Shown here in pieces: positions 20,176-20,616 of a stretch of 28,381 bases of DNA. The notes below the pieces were generated by a model. The model did not search any database. It was not told where the DNA came from and was given only the letters and a program-made list of their open reading frames with translations. Each line of letters opens with the position of its first letter. The first letter of the stretch is position 1. Source of the stretch: a virus (lineage: Duplodnaviria > Heunggongvirae > Uroviricota > Caudoviricetes); the IMG/VR virus record IMGVR_UViG_2909251562_000002, one strand, 5' to 3'. The position numbers and the translations under genes were made by a program.

Positions 20176-20215
20176 TTACACCTCTTGTAATTACAAATGT
20201 CATTACAAGTATCGC
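20176..20215 (-). promoter_or_regulatory. relBE promoter-operator with inverted repeats
   Basis: CTTGTAATTACAAATGTCATTACAAG directly upstream of the relB start, containing the TTGTAAT/ATTACAA repeats. Confidence 0.7.
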
Positions 20216-20398
20216 ACTACAACATGCTTAGGGCAAGTCACGAAGGAAGTCAGAAAGTAGTCGTAAGAACGGTGATCACTGTCCGCTTTGTGCCAGGAGC
20301 AGCCATTGCTAAGTCCATCCTGTATTGTGCAGGTCAGCTCGTTTTTAAAGAGTCCGGCCATCATCTTACTGGTACAGACACCATATACTTTGTGACGG

Positions 20399-20533
20399 TC
20401 AGGCTAGACGCATCGCGCGACCTTCGGGAACTAAATCCCCTTTCCAGCTATAAAGCGAAGCCAAACGAATACCTGCTGCTTGTGCAAGTTTTGTTTTTGA
20501 ACCGAAATACAAAAGAGCGTCAGTTTTAAGCAT
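20399..20533 (-). CDS. dicC: DicC-like (Cro-like) ORF, only 44 codons here; possibly truncated
   Basis: Manual translation MLKTDALLYFGSKTKLAQAAGIRLASLYSWKGDLVPEGRAMRLA then stop; divergent from dicA. K-12 DicC is recalled as 76 aa. Confidence 0.55.
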   Translation of the reverse strand: MLKTDALLYFGSKTKLAQAAGIRLASLYSWKGDLVPEGRAMRLA

Positions 20534-20550
20534 TTAAAACACCTTTACTG

Positions 20551-20614
20551 TTAGTTATAACTAACAAGATAGATGTTAACAAAAACATAGTCAATACGAT
20601 TTAGCATTAGCTAA
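20551..20614. promoter_or_regulatory. dicA-dicC intergenic control region with two TTAG-N6-CTAA operator-like sites
   Basis: TTAGTTATAACTAA (20551-20564, perfect palindrome) and TTAGCATTAGCTAA (20601-20614) between the divergent genes. Confidence 0.6.
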
Positions 20615-20616
20615 CT

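Follow-up and report, generated by a model that had tools for sequence, protein, structure and literature searches.

Deletion by illegitimate recombination in a lineage of the cryptic prophage Qin truncates dicC and is predicted to leave a switch with only its repressor arm

In the cryptic prophage Qin of E. coli K-12, the Cro-like protein DicC has 76 aa, and several genes separate dicC from relB, i.e. ydfV, flxA, ydfW (the intK locus), and ydfX according to the K-12 annotation. In the DNA analysed here (28,381 nt, IMG/VR record IMGVR_UViG_2909251562_000002; the whole stretch is called “the window”), a dicC-like frame ends after 44 codons, and it lies close to relB. The initial annotation ascribed this arrangement to a deletion ending inside dicC. 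Alternatively, a DicC of about 44 aa could be native to this prophage, or the genes found in K-12 could never have belonged to its lineage. The question is which of these possibilities applies, and what remains of the regulatory switch to which dicC belongs.

The window represents the Qin (Kim) cryptic lambdoid prophage, which is integrated between ydfJ and rspB. Over its full length, the window has 99.96% identity to strain WS1933D, in which this stretch is flanked by ydfJ′ and rspB. The Qin gene set that was used (cspB/F/I, essD-rrrQ-rzpQ, ydfT/U, rem, hokD, relBE, dicA, dicF, dicB, ydfD, and int) is annotated in WS1933D, and the window shares colinear blocks with K-12 Qin.

From left to right, the locus comprises relE, relB, a gap of 226 bp, the 44-codon ORF, an intergenic region of 83 bp, and dicA (Table 1). 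The gap, which had been estimated at about 230 bp, extends from the relB start codon, ending at 20172, to the stop codon of the dicC-like ORF (dicC′), beginning at 20399. The 44-aa product of dicC′ is MLKTDALLYFGSKTKLAQAAGIRLASLYSWKGDLVPEGRAMRLA. Alignment confirmed that its residues 1-43 are identical to residues 1-43 of K-12 DicC, as had been claimed; they are followed by Ala and a stop codon. The native part of dicC′ comprises codons 1-43 (20405-20533), while codon 44 (GCC, Ala) and the TGA stop derive from antisense ydfV sequence.

The interval between relB and dicC′ is not empty. It contains the 5′ 210 nt of ydfV, which are 100% identical to K-12 ydfV codons 1-70, and the window has 0 mismatches to K-12 across 19600-20406. 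The neighbouring genes therefore did belong to this prophage lineage. The truncated ydfV (ydfV′) runs into the antisense strand of dicC′ and thereby forms a chimeric ORF of 110 aa, for which a Pfam search yielded no match, and which is probably not a functional gene. In the genomes that carry this arrangement, PGAP labels both dicC and ydfV “incomplete, missing C-terminus”, i.e. as partial pseudogenes; both gene stumps are already known as pseudogenes through this automated annotation of five RefSeq genomes (PGAP).

Table 1 Positions of the features of the dicC locus and of the other switch components in the window
Feature	Position	Strand	Evidence
rem, DicA antirepressor, intact	18951-19202	-	ORF; WP_000980994.1 as in K-12
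relE	19646-19933	-	ORF
relB, antitoxin, intact, left neighbour of the interval	19933-20172	-	ORF; WP_000534858.1 in the identical genomes 67-1 and WS1933D
ydfV′, first 70 ydfV codons, truncated by the deletion	20197-20406	+	100% identity to K-12; PGAP
Chimeric 110-aa ORF, ydfV′ running into the antisense strand of dicC′	20197-20529	+	ORF, translation
dicC′, 44-codon stump	20399-20533	-	ORF and K-12 comparison, Pfam, PGAP
Deletion junction, 2-bp TA microhomology common to both parental flanks	20405-20406		Base-by-base K-12 comparison and blastn
Oc, DicA operator overlapping the dicC promoter	20548-20567		Reads CTGTTAGTTATAACTAACAA versus TTGTTAGTCATAACTAACAA in K-12
Putative dicC promoter: -35 TTGACT (20594-20589), 17-nt spacer, -10 TATCTT (20571-20566)	20566-20594	-	Consensus scan
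dicA, CI-like repressor, intact, protein identical to K-12 DicA	20617-21024	+	ORF; Pfam HTH_3, Phage_CI_repr; WP_000448564.1
Operator-like palindrome ATGTTAGCTATAGCATACAA between dicA and ydfA, dicBp region	21059-21078		Match to the Oc palindrome
DicF sRNA, switch-controlled payload, intact	22184-22235	+	Rfam RF00039, 76.7 bits versus a gathering score of 48
dicB, cell-division inhibitor, intact	22410-22598	+	ORF contains the 62-aa DicB; WP_000854559.1 in identical genomes and K-12

To locate the breakpoint, the window was compared with K-12 base by base and with blastn. Positions 11581-20406 match K-12 up to ydfV codon 70, and positions 20405-21448 match from dicC codon 43 onward. The two blocks are colinear and overlap by exactly 2 bp (TA), and foreign DNA is absent from the joint. 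A single deletion joins ydfV codon 70 to dicC codon 43, the two genes being convergent. The flanks match both K-12 and strain IAI1 with at least 99.5% identity up to the TA overlap. The colinear flanks, the few common bases, and the absence of a scar of an IS or of site-specific recombination characterize a microhomology-mediated (illegitimate) deletion. The cause of the truncation is one illegitimate-recombination deletion with a 2-bp TA microhomology. The event is ordinary in kind, i.e. a microhomology-mediated deletion that pseudogenizes the Cro-like arm of a cryptic-prophage switch. The initial interpretation is supported with refinements on the left end and on the ancestral layout: the right end lies inside dicC as proposed, in agreement with the PGAP labels, but the left end lies inside ydfV and not at relB, and the 70 remaining ydfV codons had been overlooked.

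The missing DNA amounts to 1617 bp relative to K-12 and to 6446 bp relative to IAI1. Lost are the ydfV 3′ end, flxA, dicC codons 44-76, and the remaining genes of the dicC operon. These remaining genes are ydfX and ydfW/intK in K-12; fuller relatives have genes of the ydaT-like, replication-like, DUF977, and methyltransferase types together with an ISEsa1 element. IAI1 and ATCC 8739 have ~6.2 kb between ydfV and dicC, a stretch with a YdaT-family gene, a gene for a 321-aa protein, DUF977, a methyltransferase gene, an ISEsa1 remnant, ydfW, and flxA. Relative to these two strains, K-12 ydfX′ is a YdaT gene that was cut by a separate 4.8-kb deletion (the ydfX′-ydfW junction), so that the loss in the window may be 6446 bp and not 1617 bp. 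The K-12 layout is not necessarily ancestral. Candidates for the parent of the window allele are a K-12-like layout (loss of 1.6 kb), an IAI1-like layout (loss of 6.4 kb), and another allele with a deletion from dicC nt 129 (see below).

Among 5426 complete E. coli genomes, five carry the junction (67-1, WS1933D, TW11681, LR883000.1, and S1-NGR-02-A), and three IMG/VR contigs carry it as well. An assembly artefact was rejected because the identical junction is present in five independently finished genomes as well as in these contigs. The prophage background is the same in all carriers of the junction, suggesting that the event took place once and was passed on within a small lineage. In TW11681, which is an ETEC strain that produces ST and is used in human challenge, the dicC stump is further interrupted by an IS3-family element at window position 20471-20475. 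The junction can serve as a clean marker for the small lineage that includes this strain.

To predict the consequences for DicC, the stump and the full-length protein were compared with the Pfam profile P22_Cro (PF14549, gathering cut-off 30.2 bits). Full-length K-12 DicC matches profile positions 2-57 of 60 with 44.1 bits. The stump passes the cut-off with 34.2 bits, but it covers only profile positions 2-41 and does not contain a complete domain with a five- or six-helix repressor fold. Such a helical repressor fold of five or six helices has been described for P22 Cro (PMC6649833). DicC aligns to P22 Cro (PDB 1RZS) over residues 1-59, and at most 43 of these are kept in the stump. An AF2 model of DicC, which has a low confidence (pLDDT 56), was built on an alignment of seven sequences and was used solely for approximate helix boundaries; it contains helices at residues 3-10, 13-20, 24-28, 37-47, and 55-73. 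In this low-confidence model, truncation after residue 43 interrupts helix 4 halfway and removes helix 5. Uninterrupted DicC relatives have 75-76 aa, and their residues 37-51 are invariant. Very probably, the product of 44 aa is unable to fold properly and has no function, which would make dicC′ a pseudogene. The stump retains the helix-turn-helix region without the last third of the P22_Cro domain; as the gathering score is passed and the helix-turn-helix is kept, it may have residual DNA binding.

The other parts of the switch are retained. WP_000448564.1, i.e. DicA, is annotated in K-12 as well as in 67-1, and 67-1 and the window do not differ in their DNA across 20407-21100. dicA (+) and dicC′ (−) form a divergent repressor/cro-like arrangement with a distance of 83 bp, and the intergenic region contains the 20-bp Oc palindrome, which overlaps the −10 element of the dicC promoter. 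Putative −10 and −35 elements of dicC have been described beside Oc, and DicA bound at Oc represses dicC and activates dicA (PMC3441716). The palindrome ATGTTAGCTATAGCATACAA is the only other match to the Oc palindrome in the window at up to five mismatches and has 0 mismatches to K-12; operators at dicBp have been placed by the literature (PMC10448788). In addition to DicF, dicB, and rem, whose product acts as an antirepressor of DicA (PMC10448788), ydfD is annotated as intact in the identical genomes.

DicA and DicC constitute a bistable switch, and deletion of dicC leaves dicBp repressed in K-12 (PMC10448788). In the K-12 ΔdicC mutant, the fraction of spontaneous dicBp-ON colonies is decreased from 1.16% to 0.04%, and induction by urea is weaker (PMC10448788). 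Induced DicC represses dicA 48- to 84-fold, binds to 279 regions, and slows growth independently of dicBF (PMC11430063). The dicC gene is operonic with ydfX and intK (PMC11430063). As dicA, Oc, the dicB promoter region, rem, DicF, dicB, and ydfD are intact in the window, loss of the Cro arm would reduce the DicA/DicC bistable switch to its repressor arm. The toxic dicBF operon would still be silenced by DicA, and a transient induction of dicBF through Rem would still be possible, while the DicC-dependent flip and lock-in of a stable dicBF-ON state would be largely lost. The toxicity of DicC itself and its host-wide binding would be lost, too. Extrapolation from the published K-12 ΔdicC data suggests that the switch is locked in the DicA-repressed state. 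For such a natural ΔdicC background, the published bistable-switch model predicts a much lower rate of stable dicBF induction.

The K-12 sequence of Oc, TTGTTAGTCATAACTAACAA, and its binding by DicA have been validated (PMC3441716). The window differs from K-12 by two substitutions, i.e. T>C at 20548 and C>T at 20556 (Oc positions 1 and 9), and the same two bases are its only differences from IAI1 and ATCC 8739 across 20407-21100. As a result, one asymmetric pair is shifted from Oc positions 9/12 to 1/20. Among 842 complete genomes, the exact 83-bp intergenic allele is present only in the five junction-bearing genomes, and intermediates with a single substitution were not found.

For comparison, Oc was tabulated for Qin-like IMG/VR contigs and a few genome or assembly loci. 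Natural variation is confined to positions 1, 8, 9, 12, and 13, and none affects the cores TGTTAG and CTAACAA. C1 was found in other Oc alleles, and so was T9; the perfect palindrome TTGTTAGTTATAACTAACAA is one of these alleles. The motif reported for DicC, TT[ACT]G ... C[GAT]AA, maps to the invariant cores. The substitution A16>C, which abolishes DicA binding (PMC3441716), also maps to the cores. Compensatory or selected mutations of Oc had been considered; this idea was dropped because both positions are polymorphic in other Qin prophages and the cores are invariant. The free variation of positions 1 and 9 in other Qin-like prophages makes an adaptive explanation unneeded, and we regard the window Oc as a rare combination of tolerated circulating variants, which possibly fine-tune affinity. 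A donor of the variant Oc was searched for in three ways. A 20-mer search of IMG/VR retrieved only the three contigs with the same allele and one chance match, a degenerate 20-mer search of GTDB genomes retrieved one E. coli match and chance palindromes in unrelated taxa, and a 15-mer search was uninformative, with apparent chance matches only, among the loci listed, besides the three same-allele contigs.

K-12 Qin (Kim) occupies the same chromosomal site (ydfJ..rspB) and has the same relBE-hokD, rem, dicA, ydfA, DicF, dicB, and ydfD genes with 98-100% identity, an identical DicA, identical DicC residues 1-43, and the same Oc cores and dicC promoter hexamers. In contrast to K-12, the window lacks the 1617 bp between ydfV codon 70 and dicC codon 43, differs at two positions of Oc, has a replaced ydfB-ydfC segment (21449-21965), encodes a full-length RecE-like exonuclease, and carries IS2, ISCro1, and IS3 insertions elsewhere in the prophage. 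Similarly to the lambdoid CI/Cro switch, dicC is divergent from a CI-like repressor gene across a common palindromic operator, and DicC has been reported to be the Cro arm of the bistable switch (PMC10448788). DicC also resembles P22 Cro (1RZS; PF14549), as it matches the profile and aligns over 59 residues. Unlike in P22 and the lambdoid switch, the Cro arm in the window is cut after profile position 41 of 60 and is predicted to be dead. DicA is short (135 aa) and reportedly lacks the Ala-Gly bond for RecA cleavage; induction occurs via the antirepressor Rem (PMC10448788). The laboratory K-12 ΔdicC mutants (Ragunathan et al. 2023, PMC10448788) have lost DicC function and have intact dicA, dicBp, and rem, and they are the best available proxy for the phenotype expected here. 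In contrast to these mutants, the window allele is natural, it also removes flxA, ydfW/intK, ydfX, and the ydfV 3′ end, it brings relBE next to PdicC, and it carries the variant Oc.

Other truncated forms of DicC were retrieved when homologues of the 44-aa stump were searched for. Two of them, P0002 (58 aa) and P0003 (63 aa), diverge right after residue 43, and comparison of their contigs with IAI1 revealed two further deletions (1879 bp and 365 bp), which both start from dicC nt 129. In addition, IMG/VR was searched with dicC nt 1-32 as an anchor, an approach that has no bias toward any endpoint. Of the 69 contigs retrieved, 56 match the IAI1 reference over the stretch compared, and the window-type allele occurs three times. 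The search also revealed a fourth deletion from nt 129 (4153 bp, L200), four alleles that end at nt 494-496 at “GGAGGCTA” in ydaT (the K-12 type, L147, L178, and L209), and one allele each with its end at nt 92 and at nt 185; the deletion of P0018 ends at nt 94. The “GGAGGCTA” site in ydaT is also the distal end of the P0003-type deletion. Taken together, four different natural deletions, including that of the window, have dicC nt 129 as a common endpoint, with the microhomologies TA, TA, CTA, and TCTA, and the K-12 ydfX junction sits at the second recurrent endpoint. P0002-type alleles could have been derived from the P0003 type via a 4-bp TATC repeat, and the nt-129 events are not all necessarily independent.

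Two further, independent lesions of dicC are a nonsense (amber) codon at Q44 (CAG>TAG, L031) and an IS1 insertion at nt 80 (L037). In every context for which gene calls were returned, dicA is called intact. Like the window allele, the other natural Qin deletion alleles are microhomology-mediated, proceed from the dicC/ydaT end of the rightward operon toward flxA, ydfV, or ydfU, and keep dicA. They differ in their distal endpoints and sizes, which range from 365 bp to 8.5 kb. In K-12, the deletion begins 365 bp beyond nt 129, in ydaT, and does not affect dicC. Many independent knock-outs of dicC exist in natural populations of E. coli, and all of them preserve dicA. Repeated loss of dicC with retention of dicA fits prophage domestication, in which the silencer is retained and the switch-flipping arm is discarded.

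If the short form were native or ancestral, DicC would have about 44 aa here, and K-12 would have gained the ydfV 3′ end, flxA, ydfW, ydfX, and the dicC 3′ end by insertion. An uninterrupted ORF of 44 codons does exist, and nothing else speaks for this scenario. A dicC′-dicA query is matched by 851 genomes, but the junction is present in only five of them. All uninterrupted homologues have the longer form with its invariant residues 37-51, the Pfam profile is cut at position 41, and the truncations of ydfV and dicC coincide at one point with an overlap of only 2 bp. We consider a native short form next to impossible. It is also very improbable that the 44-aa product is a functional mini-regulator, which would bind Oc-like TTAG/CTAA sites or poison DicA/DicC-like proteins of other prophages. 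Predicted helices 1-3 are kept together with a score above the gathering cut-off, and other E. coli prophages carry Cro proteins with an identical C-terminal half; against such a role, a small single-domain fold (PMC6649833) is left without helix 5 and with only half of helix 4, and DicA keeps the promoter repressed in the resting state (PMC3441716). Furthermore, the stump of TW11681 was broken by an IS without apparent consequence, and the tails differ between the nt-129 alleles (A, 15 aa, or 20 aa), so that no specific product is conserved.

A more serious competitor is adaptive rewiring, i.e. selection of the deletion, and perhaps of the two Oc substitutions with it, rather than neutral decay. 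Possible benefits are a lock of the DicA state combined with removal of the toxic DicC, the placement of relBE-hokD immediately behind the dicC promoter, which is strong and repressed by DicA, or ydfV transcription that reads into dicA. The repeated, independent knock-outs of dicC in natural strains with retention of dicA would be compatible with selection, as would the growth inhibition upon DicC induction (PMC11430063) and the requirement of DicC for stable dicBF induction (PMC10448788). In addition, the minus strand downstream of PdicC now has the order dicC′, antisense ydfV′, relB-relE-hokD, a simple scan found 0 terminator-like sites between 20399 and 20173, and the Oc allele is exclusive to the deletion lineage among the 842 complete genomes. 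However, the allele is rare (5/5426 genomes), decay is continuing in TW11681 with an IS in the stump, the Oc substitutions affect freely varying positions outside the invariant cores, and recurrent loss also fits relaxed selection plus a mutational hotspot. The ideas about read-through come solely from a consensus terminator scan; terminator scans of the segment deleted relative to K-12 and of the window interval gave nothing convincing, and read-through from PdicC or ydfV′ is speculation. Overall, adaptive rewiring appears improbable. The best explanation, to which we assign a probability of about 85%, is that the window contains a lineage-specific decay allele of Qin, which arose by ordinary prophage decay through the ydfV-dicC deletion and in which the Cro arm is dead and the repressor arm is left.

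In addition to the prediction for the switch and the lineage marker, the allele is of interest because deletions in Qin prophages across E. coli unexpectedly use the same exact endpoints again. It is conceivable, albeit rather unlikely, that nt 129 and “GGAGGCTA”, 365 bp downstream in ydaT, are site-preferential break points that seed one-sided deletions of the Qin rightward operon. The window truncation, the K-12 ydfX junction, and at least six other alleles would then be due to a single process directed by structure or by an enzyme, with selection for the loss of the toxic DicC arm, and not to independent random decay. An imperfect hairpin (DNA fold −14.7 kcal/mol, z = −2.65) has nt 129 (GCGTCTA|CAGG) in its apical loop of 5 nt; folding of the other recurrent endpoints revealed no consistent structure. 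An IS at nt 129 had been considered for the 43-aa partial DicC proteins of group P0001 and was rejected, as most of them are contig ends at nt 128-131. These ends fit k = 31 unitigs that stop 30 nt past the boundary of immunity-module homology (at about nt 101), and among the P0001 cases the Q44 amber mutation of L031 is real. A 6-aa motif, SGHHLT, is common to YdfV and the P0002 tail; it is a chance similarity, as there is no nucleotide homology. Among the complete genomes, strain 52F4 provides the only clear single-piece match to the P0002-type allele.

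The dicC-side endpoint of the deletion that joins dicC′ (the 44-codon dicC stump) to ydfV′ (the first 70 ydfV codons) lies after codon 43 (GCGTCTA|, window 20405-20406, dicC nt 129), and exactly this endpoint is common to four different natural deletions. The comparison was based on the window and the Qin-like loci L023-L028 and L200, and included the deletions belonging to P0002 and P0003, two truncated DicC homologues that diverge after residue 43. An imperfect hairpin (z = −2.65) has this site in its apical loop.

At 494-496 nt from the start of dicC, the sequence 'GGAGGCTA' within the ydaT-like gene is a second repeatedly used endpoint. 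It is used by the K-12 ydfX′-ydfW junction, by three other deletion alleles, and by the P0003-type deletion at its distal end (loci compared: K-12 L002, L147, L158, L178, L190, L209, and L026).

Across different immunity types, the DNA is near-identical from about dicC codon 34 through ydaT and beyond. The cro gene of strain AR_0369 exemplifies this mosaic, i.e. its N-terminal half is different, while the DNA from about codon 34 onward is near-identical. The sharp mosaic boundary at about nt 101 probably accounts for the many short-read contigs whose ends lie about 30 nt past it, at nt 128-131.

After the deletion, the minus strand at 20173-20533 reads from the DicA-repressed dicC promoter through dicC′ and antisense ydfV′ towards relB-relE-hokD, about 360 bp away. 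A consensus scan of the stretch from 20399 to 20173 gave no terminator-like site. Judged from this arrangement, it is possible that the deletion newly coupled relB-relE-hokD transcriptionally to the dicC promoter.

The DicA operator Oc (20548-20567) has the sequence CTGTTAGTTATAACTAACAA in the window's lineage, from which K-12 differs by two changes. Among 842 genomes, this allele is limited to the five that carry the junction. Across Qin-like contigs, the TGTTAG/CTAACAA cores are invariant and only positions 1, 8, 9, 12, and 13 vary, often symmetrically, with the centres TCATGA, CCATGG, and TTATAA.

Window 21449-21965 has no match to K-12; ydfC is missing there, ydfB is shortened or fused, and two ORFs take the place of these genes. 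The AR_0369 alignment spans this segment, with ydfB truncated as in the window. The RecE-like exonuclease is of full length in the window, in contrast to K-12 Qin, in which it is truncated by IS2, and is followed by an excisionase gene.

Features of the window and of compared Qin-like loci (window positions unless stated otherwise; window-, P0002-, and P0003-type deletions sized against IAI1)
Feature	Position	Strand	Description
Window-type deletion	endpoint dicC nt 129		6446 bp; TA microhomology
P0002-type deletion	endpoint dicC nt 129		1879 bp; TA microhomology
P0003-type deletion	endpoint dicC nt 129		365 bp; CTA microhomology
L200-type deletion	endpoint dicC nt 129		4153 bp; TCTA microhomology
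K-12 use of 'GGAGGCTA' endpoint	L002, about 10059-10061		ydfX′ end
Sharp mosaic boundary within cro	from about dicC nt 101; window about 20405-20433 plus deleted part		L004 vs L006
Replacement ORF	21585-21905	-	106 aa, apparently hydrophobic
Replacement ORF	21306-21923	+	205 aa
RecE-like exonuclease	about 22880-25351		823 aa; YdfE_N, YdfE_C, Rv2179c-like domains
cspA-type thermoregulator 5′ leaders (n = 2)	12729-13113, 15623-16015	both -	Rfam RF01766, 114 and 159 bits
IS2	1-1330		left prophage end, truncates ydfJ
ISCro1 (IS66 family)	about 7600-10270		late region
IS3	26796-28053		integrase gene split

The two RF01766 leaders precede cspB and cspI, cold-shock genes of the prophage. This Qin copy has decayed further, as marked by three IS elements. 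Strain 67-1 has an additional IS1414 between ydfU and rem, and dicC′ of TW11681 carries an additional IS3-family element.
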